A DNA stretch of 64,000 bases from Chloroflexota bacterium (GTDB taxonomy: Bacteria; Chloroflexota; Limnocylindria; P2-11E; CF-107). A program made the translations under genes and the position numbers. The notes beneath the pieces are model-generated. The model was given only the letters and a program-made list of their open reading frames with translations. It did no database searches and had not been told where the DNA came from. Location: NCBI GenBank assembly GCA_005881435.1, contig VBHP01000028.1:71003-135002 (forward strand), read 5' to 3'. This document shows positions 1,750 through 61,692 of this stretch, piece by piece; position 1 is the stretch's first letter, and every line of letters begins with the position of its first letter.

Positions 1750-2907
1750 ATGACGGACGCACCGAGACCGCTGCTGATCCACTCCAACTCGTACGACGAT
1801 CCGGCGATGCTGCATGCCTCCGGCTTTCTCGCGACCGATCCATTCACGTATCTCGAGACGAACGGGCACCGCGTCATCCTGACCAGCGCGCTGGAAGCCG
1901 GACGGGCGCGCAAGCAGTCCCGCGCGACGGCGATACGTGAGATGGACGAATTCGGGATCCAGGCGCTGTTGCGGGAGACCAGATCCTGGGACGAGGCCTA
2001 TGCCGCCGCACTGGACCGGTTCCTCGCCGAATACGGCGTGCGTGACGCGCTCGTGCCGCGCGAGTTCCCGCTGTATCTGGCCGAGCTGTTGCGGAAGCGC
2101 GGCGTGAAACTCGAGGTCGCGCCAAAGCTGGGCGAGCAGCGCCGTCGAAAGACCGCGGCCGAGATCGCCGCGATCGAAGAGACCCAGCGCGCGACTGAGG
2201 CGGGGTTCGACGAGGCGTTGCGCATGCTGCGCGACGCGGACGTCGCCGGCGACCGATCACTGGTCCTCGACGGAAAGCCGCTGACGGCGGAGCGCGTCCT
2301 GGCCGAGATCGAGGTCACCATGCTGGAGCGTGGTTGCGTCGCCGACGACACCATCGCCGCCGGAGGTCCGCACGCGGCCGACCCGCACCAGGTCGGGACC
2401 GGTCCCTATCGCGCCAACGAAGCGATCGTAATCGACATCTATCCGCAGTCACGCCGCAGTCGTTTCTTCGCCGACATGACGCGTACGGTCTGCCGCGGTG
2501 AGCCGCCCGACGAGATCGTTCGTATGTACGACATCACCCTGCGCGCACAGCACGAGGGCATCGCGATGGTGCGGCCCGGCGTGACCGGTAAGGAGATCCA
2601 CGAGCGCATCGAGGATCTGTATTTCGACGCCGGCTACGGGACCACGCGAGAGGGTCAGCGCCGCCCCGGTGTCCCGTCGTTCATCCACGGGCTCGGCCAC
2701 GGTGTCGGGCTCGCGATCCACGAGGCGCCGTCGATCGGGCGCAGCGGCGTGCAGCCACTCGAGCCGGGCGACGTCATCACCATCGAGCCCGGTCTCTATC
2801 TCGAGGGCCTCGGCGGCGTGCGAATCGAGGACATGCTCGTCGTCACCGAGACCGGCGCGCGCAATCTCACGCGAGCGGCAAAGGTGCTTCGGCTCGACTC
2901 TGGCTAG
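1750..2907 (+). CDS. Xaa-Pro aminopeptidase (M24)
   Basis: Metal-ligand motifs DIYP...ADMTRT, HGLGHGVGL.IHE, TIEPGLY, GVRIED. Confidence 0.95.
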   Translation: MTDAPRPLLIHSNSYDDPAMLHASGFLATDPFTYLETNGHRVILTSALEAGRARKQSRATAIREMDEFGIQALLRETRSWDEAYAAALDRFLAEYGVRDALVPREFPLYLAELLRKRGVKLEVAPKLGEQRRRKTAAEIAAIEETQRATEAGFDEALRMLRDADVAGDRSLVLDGKPLTAERVLAEIEVTMLERGCVADDTIAAGGPHAADPHQVGTGPYRANEAIVIDIYPQSRRSRFFADMTRTVCRGEPPDEIVRMYDITLRAQHEGIAMVRPGVTGKEIHERIEDLYFDAGYGTTREGQRRPGVPSFIHGLGHGVGLAIHEAPSIGRSGVQPLEPGDVITIEPGLYLEGLGGVRIEDMLVVTETGARNLTRAAKVLRLDSG

Positions 2908-4244
2908 TTGTGCGGCTGGGTACGCAGCCAGGCCACGGCCGCGTCGCGCACCGTGTCCGTCGGCGCATCCGGCGCACGGGTCACGACCTCGTCCGGCACG
3001 ACGCCTTTACCGGATAGGTCATCGCGGGTCACGGCGGACTGGATCTTGGCGTACGTATACAGCAGCAGCCCTCCGTCCGGCAGCTCACGCGGGAGCGCGA
3101 TGCTGATGCAGCCGGCGGTGCCGGCACCAAAGACCCGTCCGGCGCCGTGCTCCTGGATGGCGGAGGCGATGATCTCGGCCCCCGAAGCCGTGTACTGGTC
3201 GACGAGCACGGCCAGCGGTTTCTGCCGGGGATAGAACGCCTTCGGGTTCACCGGCTTTGGCACAGCCTGACCATCGCGATCGACCTCGTAGAGCACGTTG
3301 CCGCTCTTGATGAAGGTGCTCGCAATCTGCTCCGCCGGATCGAGTAACCCACCGGGATCGCCGCGCAGGTCGAGGATCCATCCGACGGCACCTTCGCGAT
3401 CCAATCGCGAGAGTGCTGCGGTCAGATCGCCCGGGATGTTGGCGGTGATGTTCTGGATGTTCACGTAGCCGTATTGCGAATCCACGACTTCCTCGACGAT
3501 GTCCGGTGCGATCAGCGAGGCGCGCGTGATGCTGAGGTCCAGGTCGCTCGCACCTCGAGTGATGACGAGCTTCACCGCGGTGCCCTCGGGGCCCTTGATC
3601 AGGTTGGCGACCTCTTCGGCGGTCAAGCCGGAGACGTCCTTCCCGTCCACGCTCTTGATCCGGTCGCCGGTCTTGACGCCGGCCTTTTGCGCCGGGCTGT
3701 CCGGGAACACCTGCGTGATCTCCGGCAGCGTCGCCGTGTTCGGCTGCGGCTGCTGGATCCGCGCTCCGATGCCGCTGTAGCGCTGGTTCGAGGGCTGGTT
3801 GAAGGTCCTCGCGCGATCGGGATCCAGGTAGTAGGTGTGGCACTCGTGGGTCGATTTCGCCATGCCAGTCACTGCGGCGCGCTCTAGCTCGGTTTTCGCC
3901 GCGCCCGGCGATTGCTGCTGCGCCTTGTCCAGATAGGCGGCGAAGGCGCGGAGGTCATCGTCGGTGTTACCGGTGAACGCGGGCGTGTCGCCCGGAACCG
4001 TCAGGTTCTGGGCCTGCAAATAGGCAGCAACGTCGCTCACGGCCCCGTCGAGCAGTGTCTTTGACGACGGCTTATTGACCTGATGTTCCACCAGCACGTG
4101 GAGCGCCTGCTCCACGGTCGCATAGGTCGTCGTGCTCGCGGGCGCGCTTTCACTGGGGTTGGATTGAAAGGGGAGCGTGATCGTGCAGCCGGACAGAACA
4201 AACAGCGCGGCGATCAGCAGACTGACGATTCGGCGCGAGGTCAC
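2904..4244 (-). CDS. S41-family PDZ protease, predicted lipoprotein
   Basis: LSGC lipobox, YSGIGA PDZ region, LDLRGDPGG, TASGAE; TACACT 7 nt before GTG4244. Confidence 0.9.
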   Translation of the reverse strand: MTSRRIVSLLIAALFVLSGCTITLPFQSNPSESAPASTTTYATVEQALHVLVEHQVNKPSSKTLLDGAVSDVAAYLQAQNLTVPGDTPAFTGNTDDDLRAFAAYLDKAQQQSPGAAKTELERAAVTGMAKSTHECHTYYLDPDRARTFNQPSNQRYSGIGARIQQPQPNTATLPEITQVFPDSPAQKAGVKTGDRIKSVDGKDVSGLTAEEVANLIKGPEGTAVKLVITRGASDLDLSITRASLIAPDIVEEVVDSQYGYVNIQNITANIPGDLTAALSRLDREGAVGWILDLRGDPGGLLDPAEQIASTFIKSGNVLYEVDRDGQAVPKPVNPKAFYPRQKPLAVLVDQYTASGAEIIASAIQEHGAGRVFGAGTAGCISIALPRELPDGGLLLYTYAKIQSAVTRDDLSGKGVVPDEVVTRAPDAPTDTVRDAAVAWLRTQPHN

Positions 4245-4275
4245 GGGTTCGAGTGTATCTGCCGGACCCGCGAAG

Positions 4276-4857
4276 CTAGGCGACTTCCTCCGCCAGCAGT
4301 TTGCGCAAACGTCCAAGCGCGCGGAACTGCAGCGCGCGGACGGCACCTTCGTTCTTGCCGAGGACCTTCGCGACTTCCTGTGACGAATAGTTCTCCATGA
4401 AACGGAGCAGCAGAACTTCTTGCTGATCGCTGGTGAGCTTCGTCATCGCGCGACGCAGCGCGTCGGCGCGATCGCGCGCCTCGACATGCTCGTGCGCCGT
4501 CGGCGATTGATCCGCGACACCGAATGCATCCTCGAGGTCGACGGTCGGCCGCGCGCGACGCATGCGATCGGTGACGGCGTTGCGCGCGATCGTGTACAGC
4601 CAGGCCAGAAACGATTTGCCTTGCCAGCGGTAGCGTTTGATGTTCGCGAACGCGCGTGTGAACACCTCGCTTGTCAGGTCCTCAGCGTCAGAGGCGTCGC
4701 GCACGCGGTAGAGGAGGTAGCGGTAGACACGATCGACGTACTCGTCGTACAGCTCAGCGAACGCTTCGCGGTCGCCGCCGCGCGCCCTGGTGATCACGTC
4801 GGGCGCTTCGTCCGCAGCGGGCTGCGGGATCGTTATCGAAATCTGTGCGATCGTCAC
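4276..4857 (-). CDS. ECF sigma-70 factor
   Basis: AFAELYDEY..RVYRY, AEDLTSEVF, WLYTIARN, region 4 LGKNEGAVRALQFRAL; GAGGGGGA before GTG4857. Confidence 0.92.
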   Translation of the reverse strand: MTIAQISITIPQPAADEAPDVITRARGGDREAFAELYDEYVDRVYRYLLYRVRDASDAEDLTSEVFTRAFANIKRYRWQGKSFLAWLYTIARNAVTDRMRRARPTVDLEDAFGVADQSPTAHEHVEARDRADALRRAMTKLTSDQQEVLLLRFMENYSSQEVAKVLGKNEGAVRALQFRALGRLRKLLAEEVA

Positions 4858-53013: not shown

Positions 53014-53271
53014 ATGGTTACCTGGGAGCTTCCCGACGGCAGCGAGGTCCGCTGCGAGCAGCTCACCGTCGACGCGCGCGCGCTCCGGACGTTCGTGATG
53101 CGCTTCATGGCCGCGCATCCGCGGTACTGGGACGCCGGGTCGTGGGACGTTGAGGAGCTTGCGACGGAGTTCGAGCGACACTTCGGCGAAAAAGTCGAAG
53201 TGCGCAAGACCGTTCGTCCCGACGGCGTGACGGTACACACCGTGCGGCCGCGCTTCGCCCCATCGATGTGA
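53014..53271 (+). CDS. Hypothetical protein coupled to the HD-GYP gene
   Basis: GC3-rich codons; GTGA overlap with the next gene; start may be 53008. Confidence 0.7.
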   Translation: MVTWELPDGSEVRCEQLTVDARALRTFVMRFMAAHPRYWDAGSWDVEELATEFERHFGEKVEVRKTVRPDGVTVHTVRPRFAPSM

Positions 53272-54605
53272 CCGCGCGAACGACGAACGCGTACGTCGCG
53301 ACCATCGCCGCCGCGGCGGCGATCGTGTTCACGCTCGAGCTGGCGCGTCTCGAACCCTCGCGAATCGATGTGCTCGCGTTCCTATTCCTCGCCGTCCTCG
53401 CCGCGGTGGCGCAACGGATCCCGATCTACTTGTTCCGATCCAGTGCCGTGAGCGTGGCGTACGTCGCGACCATCGCCGCGTATGTGCTCTTCGGCACGCC
53501 GGCGGCGCTTTTGGTGAATTTCGCTTCGGCCATCGTCAACGCCTTCACGCCGCGTCCCAAGCCGTGGCCCAAGATCCTTTTCAACACCGGCAGCGTCACG
53601 ATCGCGGCCGCGTTCGCCGGCAGCGTGTACGAGCTTCTCGGCGAAGTGCCGCCGCTGCAGGTCCTGCCGACGATCGCAGCGGTCGCGGTCAGCGGCCTGG
53701 TCTACTTCGCGGTGAGCTCCGCGCTCACCGCCACCGTCATCGCCCTCTCCACCGGAGGGAATCCCATTGCGGTCTGGCGCGAGAACTACTCCTGGATGAC
53801 CGTGAACTATGGCGCGACCGCCGTGATCGGCGCGATGCTCGCGCTGGCGTACCGCTCCCTGGGGATCCTCGGCGCCGCGAGCTTCGTCCTGCCGCTCGCC
53901 GTGGCGTGGTACTCGTTCAAGCTCTACATGACGAGCACGCGGCAGTTGCGCGACCGCAATCGCGAGCTGCAACAGCTCAATGAATCACTGCGCCAGAGCT
54001 CAACGCAGCTCGAAGAGGCCTATGTCTCGGGCGTCCGGGCGCTCGTCGACGCCATCGAGGCGAAGGACGAGAACCGGCGCGGACATGCGGTCGCGACCGC
54101 GGCGCTGGCGACGTCGCTTGGCAGACGGTTAGGCCTGAGCGCCGACGAGCTCACCCGGCTCGAGGTCGCGGCACTGGTGCACGACATCGGTCGCGTCGGA
54201 GTCTCGGAGGACGTGCTGCTGAAGGCCGATTGGCTCACCGATGACGAGTGGTCCGAGGTCAAGCGTCATCCGGTGATCGGAGCGAACCTCCTCTCGCACG
54301 TCGGTCCGCTCGCGGAGCTGCGACCGATCGTGATCGCGCACCACGAGTCCTGGAACGGCAACGGCTACCCCTCCGGTCTCAAGGGTCAGGACATTCCCCT
54401 CGCGGCTCGGATCATCGCCGTCGCCGATGCCTATCAGGCCATGATCTCGCCGCGCACGTACCGGCCGGCGTTCAAGCCGCACCAGGCGCTCGAGGAAATC
54501 TGCGCCGGAGCCGGCGAACGCTTCGATCCCGCCGTCGTCAGCGCGCTGCTCGAGGCCGTCGCGAGTGTGCGGCCTGAAGTCGCGCGCGTCGCGATCCACG
54601 TGTAA
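53268..54605 (+). CDS. Membrane-sensor HD-GYP phosphodiesterase-like protein
   Basis: About 220-aa multi-TM N-terminus, coiled coil, HDIG, KRHP, HHE...GYP. Confidence 0.92.
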   Translation: MTARTTNAYVATIAAAAAIVFTLELARLEPSRIDVLAFLFLAVLAAVAQRIPIYLFRSSAVSVAYVATIAAYVLFGTPAALLVNFASAIVNAFTPRPKPWPKILFNTGSVTIAAAFAGSVYELLGEVPPLQVLPTIAAVAVSGLVYFAVSSALTATVIALSTGGNPIAVWRENYSWMTVNYGATAVIGAMLALAYRSLGILGAASFVLPLAVAWYSFKLYMTSTRQLRDRNRELQQLNESLRQSSTQLEEAYVSGVRALVDAIEAKDENRRGHAVATAALATSLGRRLGLSADELTRLEVAALVHDIGRVGVSEDVLLKADWLTDDEWSEVKRHPVIGANLLSHVGPLAELRPIVIAHHESWNGNGYPSGLKGQDIPLAARIIAVADAYQAMISPRTYRPAFKPHQALEEICAGAGERFDPAVVSALLEAVASVRPEVARVAIHV

Positions 54606-54617
54606 GGAGGTCGCAAG

Positions 54618-54779
54618 ATGAAGAGAGCGCTCATCACCGCCGCGCTCATCGCCGTGATGGCGTTGGCCGGCTCGCCCGCGAACGCCGCCGTGCCTTACGC
54701 CGTCGACGAAGTGACGGTCCAGGCCGTCAGCGTCAGCGACGGCACGATCCTGCCGCTCAACATCACCTGGGAGGACTGA
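54618..54779 (+). CDS. 53-aa secreted peptide MKRALITAALIAVMALAGSPANAAVPYAVDEVTVQAVSVSDGTILPLNITWED
   Basis: AAGGAGG RBS overlapping the HD-GYP stop; classic Sec signal with an ANA cleavage site; ~30-aa mature part. Confidence 0.88.
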   Translation: MKRALITAALIAVMALAGSPANAAVPYAVDEVTVQAVSVSDGTILPLNITWED

Positions 54780-54781
54780 CG

Positions 54782-55309
54782 CTACGCCGGCCGGAGTCGC
54801 CCGACGAGCAGCAGCACGCCCAGCACAACCAGCACGAGCGGGAAACCAACCGACGCGACCGGCCCGAAGTCCCTGCCACTGATGTGCAGCACGCCTTCGA
54901 AGAACGCCGCGAAGCCGAGGAACATCGCGAACCCGACGCCGGCCGTGTTCAGGCCACGCCGAATTTGGGTCGGGCTGCCCTGCAGCGCGCCCATCAACGC
55001 CACGCCGACGCCCGACGCGGTGGGGCCCACGAGCGCCCAGGCATACGCCCAACTCTCCCAATCGTCCGTGGCGTTCTGATAAAGCAGCACCAAGCCGACG
55101 GTGGTGACGATCGTTCCCGGGATCACCAGCGCGGCGCTCGGTCCCCGGCCCGCGGCGATCCCGGCGACGAGCAGCAGGACTCCGGGGACGATCACGAAGA
55201 GCGGCCAGCCGTAGCGACCGACATCGAAGTTCGCGAGCTGGCCGATAAGGAAGATGACGCCCGCCGCGATCAGGATCAGGCCGACGACGGTCCCGCCCTG
55301 CCGCTCCAT
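54782..55309 (-). CDS. Multi-TM membrane protein (LiaF-TM/DUF5668-like)
   Basis: GLILIAAGVIFLI...WPLFVIVPG; about 6 TM helices. Confidence 0.8.
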   Translation of the reverse strand: MERQGGTVVGLILIAAGVIFLIGQLANFDVGRYGWPLFVIVPGVLLLVAGIAAGRGPSAALVIPGTIVTTVGLVLLYQNATDDWESWAYAWALVGPTASGVGVALMGALQGSPTQIRRGLNTAGVGFAMFLGFAAFFEGVLHISGRDFGPVASVGFPLVLVVLGVLLLVGRLRPA

Positions 55310-55520: not shown

Positions 55521-55577
55521 TGCCCGCGGAGCCATGCATAGCCTGTGCCGCCCACGGCGCGATCGATAATCGCCGCG

Positions 55578-57347
55578 ATGGACGTCGCGCTGCGCGAGGC
55601 GAAGGCGCTGGAGCGGGGCATCGCCTTTGGCCGCTGGGGCGGTGTCGCTCTGGCGTTGGTCCTGGGACCGATCTTCCCGAACCTCTCGCTCCCCGCCGTG
55701 GTCGTGCTCGGGATCGGCATCGCGGCGTACAACGTCTGGGTCATGCGCGCGTCGTCGCGCGCGCTAACGCTCGCCGAGCATCGCCGCATCGAACGCCTGA
55801 CCTTCATGGCCGACCTCACGGCGCTCGCTGTGGGCATGCTGCTCTTCTCGCCGGACCCCTACTGGACCACGTTCCTCATCGTCCCGGTGGTCATCATGGC
55901 CGGCGCGTTCCGTTTCGGGAACGAGGGCGCCCTGGCGTCGAGCGTAGTGCTCGGGGTCTCGTATCTCGGGATCAGCGTGTTCCGCGCCATCGCTTTCGGT
56001 TACGGCATCGAACCGGAGCGTGTGCTGTTCCACCTCTCCGTTTTCGCCCTGACCGCCTTCATGGTCGAGCGCATCCTGCGCGAGGGGCGAGGCGTGCGCG
56101 CCGAGCGCGAGCGGCTGATCGGCGAGCTGCAACGCCGCATCGCCGAAGACGACGCTTTGGTCGAGGTCGGCCGCATCGTGGGCAGGCTCCGCGACCCAGC
56201 CGAGGTCGTTCCGGCCGTGCTCGAGGCCAGCCGGAAGGTCTTCCGCTTCGAACGCGCGACCGTGTTCACGATCGACGAGCATCGCGGCGAATACCGCGCC
56301 ATCTACCGCCTGACACCGTCCGGCGAGCCCCCCGGCGCGGCGCCGGCATTCGCGATCGGCGAGGGCCTCGTGGCCGCGGCGCTGGCGGAGGACCGGCCGC
56401 TGCTCGTGCGCGACGTGCTGAGCGATCCGCGCTACGTGCCGCGGCACATGCGCGAGCGCCGCCGCTCCGTGATCCTGGTGCCGCTCCGTGTCGCCGGACG
56501 TCCGGTCGCAGTGCTGTCGCTCTCGCGCGGGCTGCCGGACGAGTTCGGGCCGGAGGACCTTCGTCAGGCCGAGATCGTCGCCGCTTACGTCGCGCAGGTC
56601 CTGGAGAACGAGCGGCTCTTCGCCGAGGCGAGCCAGGCCGAGGCGCTGCGAGCCGCGGACCGCATGAAGGACGAGTTCCTCGCGACCGTGAGCCATGAGC
56701 TGCGCACGCCGCTCGCGGTCGTGCGTGGCGCCCTCGAGCTGCTGCAACGAGGTGTGGCGGCGCGCGAGCAGCTATTCGACCAAGCCACGCGCAATCTGGA
56801 GCGATTGAGCCACAGCGTCCAGGACCTGATCGATCTGGCGCAGCTGCGCGAGGCGCGCGTCGAGCTCGAGCGGGAGTACACCTCCGCGCGCGACCTGCTT
56901 GAAGAGACCTCGCGCGCGCACCAGCTCCTGGCGACGCAGCGCGGCCAGAGTCTGATCGTCGAAGGACGGGCGGATCTGCCGCCCGCATACGTCGATCGCG
57001 CGCGTATGCTTCAGGTCCTCGGAAACGTGGTTGCCAACGCCATTCACTACGGCCCGCTGGACGCGCCGATCACACTGTTCTGCGAGCATGTCGACGATGA
57101 GCTTCGCTTCCGCATCGTGGACCGCGGACCCGGCGTGTCCGTCGACGAGCGCGACCGCATCTTCGAACGCTTCTACCGCGCCGAGGCCACGCGCGACACC
57201 GTCTCAGGCACCGGGCTCGGGCTCGCCATCGCGCGCCGCCTCATCGAGCTGCATGGCGGCCGGATCTGGTTCGAGGACGCCGAGCCCGGGAGCGCGTTCG
57301 TGATCGCCGTGCCTCTGGACACGACCAACGCCGAGGCCGCGTCATGA
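55578..57347 (+). CDS. Membrane sensor histidine kinase with GAF domain
   Basis: TM region, GAF, VSHELRTPL, QVLGNVVANA, DRGPG, GTGLGLAI. Confidence 0.95.
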   Translation: MDVALREAKALERGIAFGRWGGVALALVLGPIFPNLSLPAVVVLGIGIAAYNVWVMRASSRALTLAEHRRIERLTFMADLTALAVGMLLFSPDPYWTTFLIVPVVIMAGAFRFGNEGALASSVVLGVSYLGISVFRAIAFGYGIEPERVLFHLSVFALTAFMVERILREGRGVRAERERLIGELQRRIAEDDALVEVGRIVGRLRDPAEVVPAVLEASRKVFRFERATVFTIDEHRGEYRAIYRLTPSGEPPGAAPAFAIGEGLVAAALAEDRPLLVRDVLSDPRYVPRHMRERRRSVILVPLRVAGRPVAVLSLSRGLPDEFGPEDLRQAEIVAAYVAQVLENERLFAEASQAEALRAADRMKDEFLATVSHELRTPLAVVRGALELLQRGVAAREQLFDQATRNLERLSHSVQDLIDLAQLREARVELEREYTSARDLLEETSRAHQLLATQRGQSLIVEGRADLPPAYVDRARMLQVLGNVVANAIHYGPLDAPITLFCEHVDDELRFRIVDRGPGVSVDERDRIFERFYRAEATRDTVSGTGLGLAIARRLIELHGGRIWFEDAEPGSAFVIAVPLDTTNAEAAS

Positions 57348-58042
57348 CGCGGATCCTGGTCATCGACGACGAGCCCGACGTGACCTCGCTCGTCGCAGTC
57401 GCGCTCGAGCACGACGACGGCAAGAAGGTCGTGTCCCAGTGCAACGACGCCGCCAGCGCGATCGGCCGCATCGCCGCCGACGCGCCCGACGTGGTCATTC
57501 TCGACATCGCCATGCCGCGGCTGGAAGGGTTCGCGATCCTCGAGGAGCTCCGGCGCGAGGGGAATCAGGTACCGGTGATCCTGCTGACCGCCAAGGGCCT
57601 GGAGCAGGACAAGGTGCGGGGCCTGGAGCTGGGCGCGGACGACTACGTCACCAAGCCGTTCAGCACCAAGGAGCTCGCCGCGCGCGTGGAAGCGGTGCTC
57701 CGGCGCTACCGCGCCTCGGACCGCGCCTCTCGCTCCAAGGTCTTCGAGCACGACGGACTACGCGTCGACTTCGCCACCCGCGACGTCACCGTCGACGGTC
57801 AGCCCATCCGGCTCACGCCGACCGAGTACGAGCTGCTCGCGCACCTGGTGTCCAATCGCGATCGCGTGCTCGAGCACCGGGCCCTGCTGGCGAAGGTCTG
57901 GGGGCCGGAGTACGCCGACGAGGTGCACTACCTGAAGGTGTACATCGGGCGCCTGCGCGCAAAGCTCGAAGGCGACCAGCAGCGGCCGCGGTACATCGAG
58001 ACCGTGCGCGGCGTCGGCTACCGCTTCCCCGCGTCGCACTAG
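57344..58042 (+). CDS. OmpR/KdpE-type response regulator
   Basis: IDDE, LDIAMP, TAK, KPF, LTPTEYELL, ETVRGVGYRF. Confidence 0.95.
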   Translation: MTRILVIDDEPDVTSLVAVALEHDDGKKVVSQCNDAASAIGRIAADAPDVVILDIAMPRLEGFAILEELRREGNQVPVILLTAKGLEQDKVRGLELGADDYVTKPFSTKELAARVEAVLRRYRASDRASRSKVFEHDGLRVDFATRDVTVDGQPIRLTPTEYELLAHLVSNRDRVLEHRALLAKVWGPEYADEVHYLKVYIGRLRAKLEGDQQRPRYIETVRGVGYRFPASH

Positions 58043-59928: not shown

Positions 59929-60042
59929 AGCCGAGCAAGCAAGCGCGCGTTTACTTCGACTCAGTACGGATGTACTAGAGGGAATCGGCCCGGTTTCACC
60001 ATTCCCAGATGCGGCCTCCGCGGCGTTCACTGTGCTGAACAG

Positions 60043-61692
60043 ATGAGCGTGCAACCGGCCCGATTCGAATGGCTTCGCGAAGTCGTCGCCAACCTCCCCG
60101 TGGTGCTGTTCGCGATCGACAGCGAGGGTACGTTCGTGCTCGCGGAGGGCGGCGCGCTCCAGCACCTCGGCTTCGCGCCGGGACAGATCGTCGGCCGTTC
60201 GGCATTCGAGGTCTACGGGGACGCGCCCGATGGCACCGCCGGCGTCACGCGCGCGCTCGAGGGCGAATCGGTACGCATGACCGCCGACGTCGGCGACAGC
60301 ACCTTCGACGTCCAGCTCGTTCCCGTCAGCGGCGACGAGCGTTTCGCCGTGCTCGGTCTGTCGATCGACGTAAGCGAGCACCGTCGCGTGCGCGAAGAGC
60401 TCGAGCATCTCGCGCTGCACGATCCGCTCACCGGTCTGCCGAATCGCGCACTGCTGCTGGACCGGCTGGGGCAGGCGATCCGCAACGCGCGCCGCGAGGA
60501 AGCCGGCGCGGCGCTGCTGCTGATGGACCTCGATCGTTTCAAGGAGGTCAACGATCGCTTCGGACATCCGGCCGGCGACGAGCTGCTGCGGCAGGTCGCG
60601 GCGCGACTGCAGGCCAACGTGCGCGACGTCGACACCGTCGCGCGTCTCGGCGGCGACGAGTTCGCGATCGTCTTGCCCGGCGCGGCGCTCGTCGCCGCGG
60701 GTCGCGTCGCGCGCGCCGTCCGTCGCGCGCTGGAAACACCGTTCGCCACCAACGGCGAGCTTCTCGACGTGCAGCCCTCCGTCGGCGTCGCGCTCGTTCC
60801 CGAGCACGGCGTCGATCCCGATACGCTCCTGCGCCGCGCCGACATCGCCATGTACGTCGCGAAGCGGAGCGGGTCGGGCACCACCATCTTCTCCAGCGAG
60901 CACGAGCTCGGCGGCGCAAGTCGGCTCTCCCTCCTAGCCGACCTGCGCGCCGGGCTCGAGCGCGACGAGCTCGTCCTGGATTACCAGCCGGAAGTGGAGC
61001 TCGCGACCGGCCGCGTCGCGCACATCGAAGCGCTGGTGCGCTGGCGCCATCCGACGCGCGGCCTACTGTCGCCGGAGCAGTTCATCCCGCTCGCCGAGGA
61101 GGGCGGACTCATCCGCCGGCTGACGACGTGGGTGCTTCGTCACGCGCTCGCCGATTGCCGCGCCTGGCGTGCCTCCGGCCTCTCGTCCGGCGTCTCGGTC
61201 AACCTGTCGATGCGCGACCTGCTCGATTCGCGGCTGCCGCAGCGGGTGTCGTCGCTGGCCGGCGCGGCGCGCGCGGACGTGCGCTGGTTGTCGCTCGAGC
61301 TCACCGAGAGCGCCCTGATGTCGGATCCGCCGCGCGCCGTCGACGTGGTCGCGCGACTGCGCCGCCTTGGGGCGCGGGTCGCCATCGACGACTTCGGGAC
61401 GGGCTATTCGTCGCTGGCGTACCTGCACCGTCTCGCCGTGGACGAGGTCAAGATCGATCGCTCCTTCGTCCGCGAGCTGCCGGGTTCGAACGCGCGCGCG
61501 GTGGTGCGCGCCGGCGTGGACCTCGCGCACAGTCTCGGCTGTGTCGCCGTCGGCGAGGGTGTCGAGGGACGGCGTGGCTGGGAGGCGCTGGCGGCGCTCG
61601 GCTGCGACGCGGCGCAGGGGTGGTACGTCGCCCGACCGATGCCGGCCTCGGCGCTGCTGGCCTGGCGCGCCGAGAGCGCGGTCTCGAAGTAA
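60043..61692 (+). CDS. PAS-GGDEF-EAL protein
   Basis: HDPLTGLPNR, RDVD I-site, RLGGDEF, IEALVRW, DDFGTGYSSL. Confidence 0.95.
   Translation: MSVQPARFEWLREVVANLPVVLFAIDSEGTFVLAEGGALQHLGFAPGQIVGRSAFEVYGDAPDGTAGVTRALEGESVRMTADVGDSTFDVQLVPVSGDERFAVLGLSIDVSEHRRVREELEHLALHDPLTGLPNRALLLDRLGQAIRNARREEAGAALLLMDLDRFKEVNDRFGHPAGDELLRQVAARLQANVRDVDTVARLGGDEFAIVLPGAALVAAGRVARAVRRALETPFATNGELLDVQPSVGVALVPEHGVDPDTLLRRADIAMYVAKRSGSGTTIFSSEHELGGASRLSLLADLRAGLERDELVLDYQPEVELATGRVAHIEALVRWRHPTRGLLSPEQFIPLAEEGGLIRRLTTWVLRHALADCRAWRASGLSSGVSVNLSMRDLLDSRLPQRVSSLAGAARADVRWLSLELTESALMSDPPRAVDVVARLRRLGARVAIDDFGTGYSSLAYLHRLAVDEVKIDRSFVRELPGSNARAVVRAGVDLAHSLGCVAVGEGVEGRRGWEALAALGCDAAQGWYVARPMPASALLAWRAESAVSK

Follow-up and report, generated by a model that had tools for sequence, protein, structure and literature searches.

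A C-terminal peptide motif kept beside a MASE9–HD-GYP membrane protein in Dormibacterota and Limnocylindria, with a possible role as its ligand

Why is a gene for a very small protein with a predicted signal peptide placed directly behind the gene for a probable membrane-bound cyclic dinucleotide phosphodiesterase? The question is raised by an operon in a 64,000-nucleotide (nt) stretch of DNA from a Chloroflexota bacterium (GenBank assembly GCA_005881435.1, contig VBHP01000028.1, positions 71,003 to 135,002), which we call the window. The operon has three genes on the + strand. Gene 1 (53014..53271) is an open reading frame (ORF) for an 85-aa protein. Gene 2 (53268..54605) encodes a 445-aa MASE9–HD-GYP membrane protein, a putative sensor phosphodiesterase by its Pfam matches, its AlphaFold2 (AF2) model and its Foldseek matches, and it is referred to below as the sensor. 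Gene 3 (54618..54779) is an ORF of 53 aa with a predicted signal peptide and the C-terminal motif N-I-T-W-E-D. The answer we favour is that the motif peptide is an extracellular ligand of the MASE9 domain and gates the hydrolysis of cyclic di-GMP (c-di-GMP) by the HD-GYP domain. This reading is drawn from the adjacency of the genes and the co-variation of the motif, and we give it a probability of roughly 0.55. The module itself, which we propose to join a peptide signal to a second messenger, is real, strongly conserved and apparently undescribed. The names given to homologues put the organism within or close to Candidatus Dormibacterota.

The motif and the sensor gene in related genomes

Loci with homologous sensors were taken from gene-context look-ups, from GTDB representative genomes (numbered L005–L070) and from JGI metagenomes (L071–L150), and were scanned in six frames for ORFs ending in [hydrophobic][TS]W[ED] plus 0–2 residues. 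The sensor clade comprises 65 non-redundant loci at 39–99% identity, found in Dormibacterota and in Chloroflexota of the class Limnocylindria. The question set beforehand was whether homologous sensors lack such peptides. A same-strand adjacent partner with the motif [GNDS][IVL][TS]W[ED] is present in 62 of the 65. The partner is one or more peptides only in 12 loci, a subtilase of family S8 with motif repeats only in 34, and both in 16, and where there is a peptide partner the number of mini-precursors per locus is one to three. The three exceptions are two sensors at contig edges (L055, L072) and one partial sensor match (L078). Within the clade to which the window belongs, the small motif-ending ORFs that the sequence-only reading had proposed to seek beside homologs were recovered in eight of nine loci.

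The motif is concentrated at the sensor. Motif-terminal ends account for 38 of 964 ORF ends in the immediate same-strand neighbourhood of the sensor and for 4 of 15,945 elsewhere in the fetched DNA (Fisher p = 2e-43). A negative control came from the metagenome scan, in the form of 72 loci (about 300 kb) that match the sensor in the HD-GYP domain only, and these contain zero terminal motifs and zero runs of W with a period of 5.

The arrangement of the module is not fixed. In the window, L001, L002 and L153, the peptide gene is found downstream of the sensor; in L004, L073, L154 and L155, it is upstream of the sensor, after the 85-aa gene. The S8 gene is likewise found either upstream or downstream of the sensor, and the partner swaps between S8 tail and mini-precursors with the motif retained. 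The link is kept even in L057 and L058, despite a GAF domain inserted between MASE9 and HD-GYP. Since it outlasts rearrangement, partner switching, domain insertion and the distance between two phyla, we take it to be functional and not merely inherited gene order. At least 12 metagenome-assembled genomes (MAGs), including GCA_030157145.1, have a pair of paralogous modules, and each of the two has a partner of its own. Some modules of Limnocylindria type are filed under Bathyarchaeia (L015/L028), Udaeobacter (L025), Gaiellaceae (L016) or Eisenbacteria (L037), and these out-of-place MAG assignments are probably binning errors.

The mini-precursors form a family of 34 distinct sequences of 41–79 aa. 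In the manner of a signal peptide, all begin with a basic n-region followed by a hydrophobic core, and most are preceded by GGAGG or GGGGGA, purine-rich and Shine-Dalgarno-like. Their middles are mutually unalignable, and they end in [GNDS][IVL][TS]W followed by E (n = 27), EE (n = 5) or ED (n = 2). In the clade of the window, the C-termini are NITWED, GNITWE, GNLTWE, LNVTWED, VNITWEE, ENVTWE and DNITWE. Tandem peptide genes in some loci overlap stop to start, and some peptides contain a second, internal copy of the motif, for example GVTWENIFQPVGVTWEE. Neither the peptides nor the repeats are covered by any model of Pfam (2025) or NCBIfam (release 20).

For an ORF this small, one must ask whether it is a chance frame with a coincidental motif. 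A protein-database search with the 53-aa peptide gave a single entry, 98% identical, from a word index too coarse for relatives this short and divergent, and the cluster of this peptide in the protein collection has just three member sequences. Gene callers sometimes skip such ORFs as well; the one at 2350–2496 of L155 (MAKVTRAVLV...LPDNITWE, with GGAGG in front) is uncalled in the source annotation. The idea of a chance frame is nevertheless effectively refuted. The GC content at the three codon positions is 0.61/0.46/0.93 in the peptide ORF and 0.67/0.48/0.87 in the sensor gene, so by composition the ORF looks coding, and it has a Shine-Dalgarno sequence at the right spacing. A signal peptide and the C-terminal motif are kept through all 34 peptides despite their divergent middles, and the enrichment beside the sensor leaves little room for coincidence.

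The large partners are proteins of 450–650 aa, all of them Peptidase_S8 subtilases (PF00082, E = 1e-47 to 1e-51), with a C-terminal region of tandem pentapeptides in 6–11 copies; that of L007 reads GITWDGITWEGISWESVSWEGVAWEAVSWEGVTWDSVTWELR. In one of them, the D/H/S triad (DTG, HGT, GTSxA) and an N-terminal signal sequence are visible. The sequence-only reading had tentatively placed [IV]-[TV]-W-[EDG] repeats on S8 proteases encoded beside MASE9-like sensors, and the related loci confirm this. Set apart by their ends are the S8 proteins of a larger subtype, type B (L006, L009, L012, L014, L015, L017, L018, L025–L027, L031), in which a short basic tail comes after the repeats and the protein ends in ...GWEALD or ...GKVLD. 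A subtype related to type B ends in ...SWAKLD, ...DWEQVD or ...SWNPVD. These C-termini are a second conserved feature at the extreme end of the S8 proteins.

The first residue of the motif is specific to the locus, a dialect of G, N, D or S, and it is matched between the peptide and the S8 repeats. DITWE peptides pair with DITWE/DITWD repeats, NITWE and SITWE peptides with NITWE repeats, and G[IV][TS]WE peptides with G-type repeats; the most distant sensors adjoin SGSWD repeats. The first motif residue of the peptide is the dominant one of the S8 units in 11 of 14 cases (permutation p = 0.006, with kinship ignored). The dialects, together with the presence of several paralogous modules in one genome, suggest that signalling runs in separate channels.

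The repeats can also be read as structure. The motif would then be a binding tag instead of a diffusible signal, the S8 tail a beta-solenoid like that of pentapeptide repeats, tethering the protease to the sensor or the cell surface, and the mini-proteins accessory subunits bound to the sensor, in the way of MgrB and PhoQ. The pattern [IV]-[TS]-W-[ED]-[GND], hydrophobic at i-2 and i and with G/N/D at i+2, does resemble classical pentapeptide repeats of the A(D/N)LXX family. In some of the peptides, Cys pairs and long pro-regions suggest larger, retained mature forms, and adjacency fits docking and the ligand reading equally well. However, the pentapeptide-repeat models of Pfam (PF00805 and relatives) did not match the tails of eight repeat-bearing proteins at E < 0.01, where just Peptidase_S8 (plus I9) was found. 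In the AF2 model of an S8-repeat protein, the tail has a predicted local distance difference test score (pLDDT) of 22–37, though the whole model is poor (mean pLDDT 52). The mini-peptides have no membrane anchor once the signal is cleaved, and a lone five-residue unit at a free C-terminus cannot make a solenoid. Finally, the S8 tails of close relatives vary by whole five-residue units (8–11 copies), not by four-unit coils. We therefore regard docking as an unlikely account of the motif.

The number of S8 genes invites an explanation centred on the protease, in which the motif is a recognition, product or inhibitor sequence of S8, as an autoinhibitory tail or as decoys, and the sensor is co-regulated or reports proteolysis. 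S8 enzymes are commonly under the control of pro- or tail segments, an S8 gene is present in 50 of the 65 loci, and a regulator gene upstream of S8 in 13 loci suggests a regulated protease operon. However, sensor and peptide are found with full flanks and without an adjacent S8 gene in the window, L001, L002, L004, L048 and L052, and the 64 kb of the window contain neither an S8-repeat gene nor any W-period-5 repeat protein. It is the sensor, and not the protease, that is invariant as a partner of the motif, and we consider this explanation less probable still than docking.

The regulator just mentioned is a protein of ~750 aa with TPR and BTAD (SARP-like) domains, encoded directly upstream of the S8-repeat gene in G-type and N-type clades (L007 at 45–2303, L010, L020, L024, L033, L054, L008, L011, L016, L019, L044, L075 and L076). 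In these loci, 13 in all, regulator, S8, sensor and peptide make up a module of four genes. The TPR-BTAD gene is missing from the type B S8 loci, and the protein has no tblastn match in the window. It bears on the idea that the peptide is imported and acts on a cytoplasmic receptor of the RRNPPA kind, or on some other receptor, with HD-GYP as a co-regulated output. Besides the regulator kept beside 13 related loci, this idea has in its favour the layout of the precursor, which the sequence-only reading had likened to that of the Phr, PapR and AimP pheromone precursors. That part of the likeness holds. The adjacent cytoplasmic TPR receptor that would complete it does not, there being no adjacent TPR or oligopeptide permease gene, either in the window or in the remaining Dormibacterota-clade loci. 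The sensor is the sole constant neighbour. The peptide of the window is therefore not a member of the RRNPPA family, and signalling by import seems to us quite improbable.

The sensor, the precursor and the operon of the window

The check with hidden Markov models that had been proposed for the membrane domain of the sensor identifies it as MASE9. The Pfam model PF20972 matches residues 28–201 with 30.9 bits, above the gathering cutoff of 24.3, and the same match is precomputed on nearly all of 120 listed homologues. The AF2 model of the sensor (94 homologues, mean pLDDT 88.9) has eight transmembrane (TM) helices, and places the MASE9 domain at aa 1–222 (53268–53933, + strand). The modeled helices span residues 3–25, 35–48, 59–75, 77–93, 100–124, 132–162, 175–198 and 200–264, and the last of them continues, to about aa 264, as a 65-residue stalk into the HD-GYP domain. 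Eight N-terminal TM segments ahead of a signalling domain agree with the published description of MASE9. Topology was read from the model and the positive-inside rule. On that basis, the outer loops are just 2–10 residues long, the basic loops QRIPIYLFR and TPRPKPWPK are inside and the catalytic domain is cytoplasmic. In the independent prediction of Galperin and Chou (bioRxiv 10.1101/2021.11.05.467447), the ligand of MASE9 is bound inside the membrane, and the short outer loops of the sensor fit that view. The membrane half of the model has a weak Foldseek match to the S-components of energy-coupling factor (ECF) transporters, namely RibU (5kbw/5kc0) and ThiT (3rlb), with TM-scores of 0.6–0.65 normalised to the target and E of 0.2–1.7; we treat this likeness of a modeled domain as a lead only.

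The HD-GYP domain is matched by Pfam HD_5 at residues 258–423 (54039–54536, + strand; E = 3e-38), and the top Foldseek matches of the C-terminal half are the solved HD-GYP domains 9rbz, 4r8z and 4mcw. The residues H273, H305-D306, H334, H358-H359-E360, G366-Y367-P368 and D387 vary little or not at all across the 94 homologues. With its metal-binding residues (H/HD/H/HH/D) and its GYP motif conserved, the enzyme is likely to be active. A 587-aa GGDEF protein is encoded at 59929–61692 (+ strand), so c-di-GMP synthesis is present in the organism.

The Shine-Dalgarno sequence of the peptide gene, AAGGAGG (54604..54610, + strand), overlaps the TAA stop of the sensor (54603–54605), and the ATG follows 7 nt downstream at 54618. 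The product is MKRALITAALIAVMALAGSPANA followed by AVPYAVDEVTVQAVSVSDGTILPLNITWED, with the predicted signal cleavage between the two. Signal peptides here and in the relatives were judged by eye from the sequence. The one in the window occupies aa 1–23 (54618..54686, + strand) and is of the Sec type, with a basic MKR n-region, a 15-residue hydrophobic core and an A-x-A site in SPANA/A, the slash marking the cut after ANA. The remaining 30-aa tail ends in LPLNITWED. It consists of a pro or spacer region at aa 24–47 (54687..54758, + strand), variable by comparison with orthologues, and then of the conserved C-terminal motif with its stop codon (54759..54779, + strand), the proposed receptor-binding epitope or mature signal. 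The layout of Sec signal, spacer and distinctive C-terminus that had been read from the 53-aa ORF thus holds up. The n/h/c layout with P-A-x-A recurs in the orthologous peptides, and the spacer has no conserved sequence or length between orthologues despite sensors that are 70–80% identical.

Several other identities for the product were considered. It is not a lipoprotein, having no Cys after the signal peptide. An N-glycosylation sequon (N-I-T) was rejected because G or D replaces N in other clades. A peptide made by the ribosome and modified after translation (RiPP) was judged unlikely, there being no radical-SAM, YcaO, lanthionine or prenyl-transferase genes among the Pfam-listed genes around L001, L002, L004 and L153–L156 or among the genes flanking the operon of the window.

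At the other end of the operon, the TGA stop of the 85-aa ORF shares the sequence GTGA (53268–53271) with the GTG start of the sensor gene, and by this overlap the two genes are translationally coupled. The three coupled genes, the GTGA overlap and the overlap of AAGGAGG with the sensor stop are all present as the sequence-only reading had described them. The 85-aa protein begins MVTWELPDG, with the same VTWE tetrapeptide as the secreted motif, and it contains YWDAGSWD, two W-D units with a period of 5. It has no hydrophobic segment and no signal peptide, looks cytoplasmic and has no Pfam or NCBIfam match. A protein with the same N-terminus is encoded in nine of nine Dormibacterota-clade loci (including L001 at 3747–4004, L004 at 3570–3824 and L153–L156) and is absent from the Limnocylindria loci. 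The family amounts to 17 representative clusters. W is not invariant in it, and one homologue, 43% identical (L151), lies away from any sensor. The 85-aa protein may mimic the motif in the cytoplasm, or its match may be a coincidence. Within the 64 kb, the pattern [ILVMFA][TS]W[ED] was found in six frames in two copies, both within this operon.

The 3' neighbour of the peptide gene is convergent, a LiaI/LiaF-like membrane protein gene at 54782–55309 (– strand), and the peptide gene is therefore the last gene of the operon. Beyond it, a kinase gene (GAF–HisKA–HATPase, 55545–57347, + strand) overlaps a gene for an OmpR-type response regulator (57344–58042, + strand). The kinase is of a soluble type and is separately transcribed, and neither L004, L154 nor the Limnocylindria loci keep it with the module. 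The LiaF-like gene and the kinase and response regulator pair were rejected as parts of the module, as they are syntenic only in the close relatives L001, L002 and L153.

A possible route from peptide to second messenger

If the favoured reading is correct, the 53-aa product would be exported by Sec and its signal peptide removed after ANA. The eight-helix MASE9 domain would then be acted on from outside by the free peptide, as the 30-mer or as a shorter fragment from its C-terminus (...NITWE(D)). Because MASE9 has almost no extracytoplasmic loops, binding would be expected in a membrane-embedded pocket open to the outside. The signal would be relayed through the long helix of TM8 and the stalk to HD-GYP, altering the hydrolysis of c-di-GMP. 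In the many relatives with an S8 partner, the tail is a plausible self-processed polyprecursor, with 6–11 pentapeptide cassettes head to tail. Taken as a whole, the scheme would be a pheromone system with Sec-exported or S8-self-cut sources, peptides ending in [GNDS][IV][TS]WE, an S-component-like MASE9 pocket, a direct HD-GYP switch and dialects as orthogonal pherotypes. We hold the complete scheme only tentatively, at somewhat less than even odds.

A number of observations weigh against the ligand reading or parts of it. First, two distant MASE9–HD-GYP proteins of 30–32% identity (L097 at 2890–4819, L082 at 23–1879) have no motif partner, and a DUF5317 membrane protein is encoded after each of them. 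The motif is accordingly no ligand of MASE9 in general, and the module is specific to this clade; different MASE9 subfamilies may have different partners. Second, the substrate may be c-di-GMP or cyclic GMP-AMP (cGAMP), as the cGAMP-specific HD-GYP protein 5z7c is among the fold matches. Third, adjacency and shared descent could produce the concordance of dialects, and the period-5 repeats could fold as a beta-solenoid instead of serving as cassettes. Fourth, peptides of L011, L016, L041, L044, L046 and L074–L076 have a Cys pair 2–10 residues ahead of the motif (for example PPTCTEGCLQSITWE and KCASTKLPACQLGITWE), which suggests that there is a disulfide loop and that the mature peptide has more than five residues. 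Fifth, the residue preceding the pentapeptide is L, F or Q in the mini-precursors and E or D in the S8 tails, so no single protease specificity or cleavage rule fits both. Within the clade of the window, L153 has a variant, AITWEIGLR, in which the motif is followed by four extra residues (IGLR) and is not terminal, and L156 shows no peptide within its available sequence.

MASE-type domains are very common in c-di-GMP enzymes, and to our knowledge almost none has a known ligand. The module supplies a concrete and synthesisable candidate. Should the complete scheme be true, MASE9 domains would have their first ligand, and a receptor enzyme leading directly from peptide to c-di-GMP would be described for the first time. 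If the peptide gates HD-GYP, a single protein would provide the route from an extracellular peptide to second-messenger turnover, with no need for the cascades of kinases and the steps of transcription by which quorum sensing is tied to c-di-GMP in known systems. Among bacterial polyprecursors, an S8 protease whose own tail bears 6–11 motif copies would be of a new kind. Dormibacterota and Limnocylindria are abundant and largely uncultured soil lineages, and this would be the first cell–cell signalling system proposed for them. Within peptide cell–cell signalling, what would be new here is the class of receptor and output together with the type of precursor. The peptide ORFs are often uncalled or unnamed, and the family is therefore invisible to standard annotation. 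In the literature on HD-GYP proteins with subtilisin or pheromones, on c-di-GMP and peptides in Chloroflexi and on quorum sensing in Dormibacterota, the module was not described, and motif strings (ITWE, VTWE and the like) gave irrelevant matches only.

Comparison with known systems

We know of no partner peptide reported for any MASE9–HD-GYP protein, TM1467 of T. maritima and HdgA of S. venezuelae included. Those two have the same architecture as the sensor, also with eight predicted TM segments (bioRxiv 10.1101/2021.11.05.467447). The ECF S-components RibU and ThiT are comparable in being small helical membrane proteins with an intramembrane ligand pocket open to the outside. However, they have six helices where MASE9 has eight and show no sequence similarity to it, and the locus has no ECF module nearby.

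Among peptide receptors, AgrC, ComD and ComP are the closest in kind. They too are polytopic sensors with very short outer loops, and the MASE9 protein would, like them, sense a secreted peptide from the same locus. Their pherotypes parallel the G/N/D/S dialects seen here. The sensor of the module differs from them in its output, a fused HD-GYP domain instead of a histidine kinase with a response regulator, and MASE9 has no sequence relation to their sensor domains. The peptide differs in having a Sec signal instead of a dedicated AgrB or ComAB exporter, and no modification enzyme is seen in the locus.

The DSF–RpfC–RpfG system of Xanthomonas also carries a cell–cell signal to an HD-GYP c-di-GMP phosphodiesterase. 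There, the signal is a fatty acid, and a separate hybrid kinase phosphorylates the REC–HD-GYP protein, whereas here the proposed signal is a peptide and the sensor and enzyme are one polypeptide.

The RRNPPA systems (Phr, PapR, NprX, AimP) provide the precedent for the precursor, which is a similarly small pre-pro-peptide with a variable spacer and would share with theirs its export by Sec and an active part at the very C-terminus. Their precursors, in Bacillota and phages, are matured by extracellular subtilisin-type (S8) proteases. The difference lies in the receptor and in the phyla. RRNPPA peptides of the Bacillota are re-imported and meet adjacent cytoplasmic TPR receptors, whereas in Dormibacterota and Chloroflexota, the constant neighbour is a polytopic membrane HD-GYP protein. 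Tandemly duplicated RRNPPA propeptides have been documented (PMC11343458). Yeast alpha-factor with Kex2 and the cyanobactins with PatE, PatA and PatG resemble the S8 tails in combining tandem short peptides with a subtilisin-family protease and in varying by whole cassettes. In none of these three cases, alpha-factor, cyanobactins or tandem RRNPPA propeptides, are the cassettes on the tail of the protease itself, whereas in the module described here, the predicted cassettes are carried there, contiguous and spacer-free.

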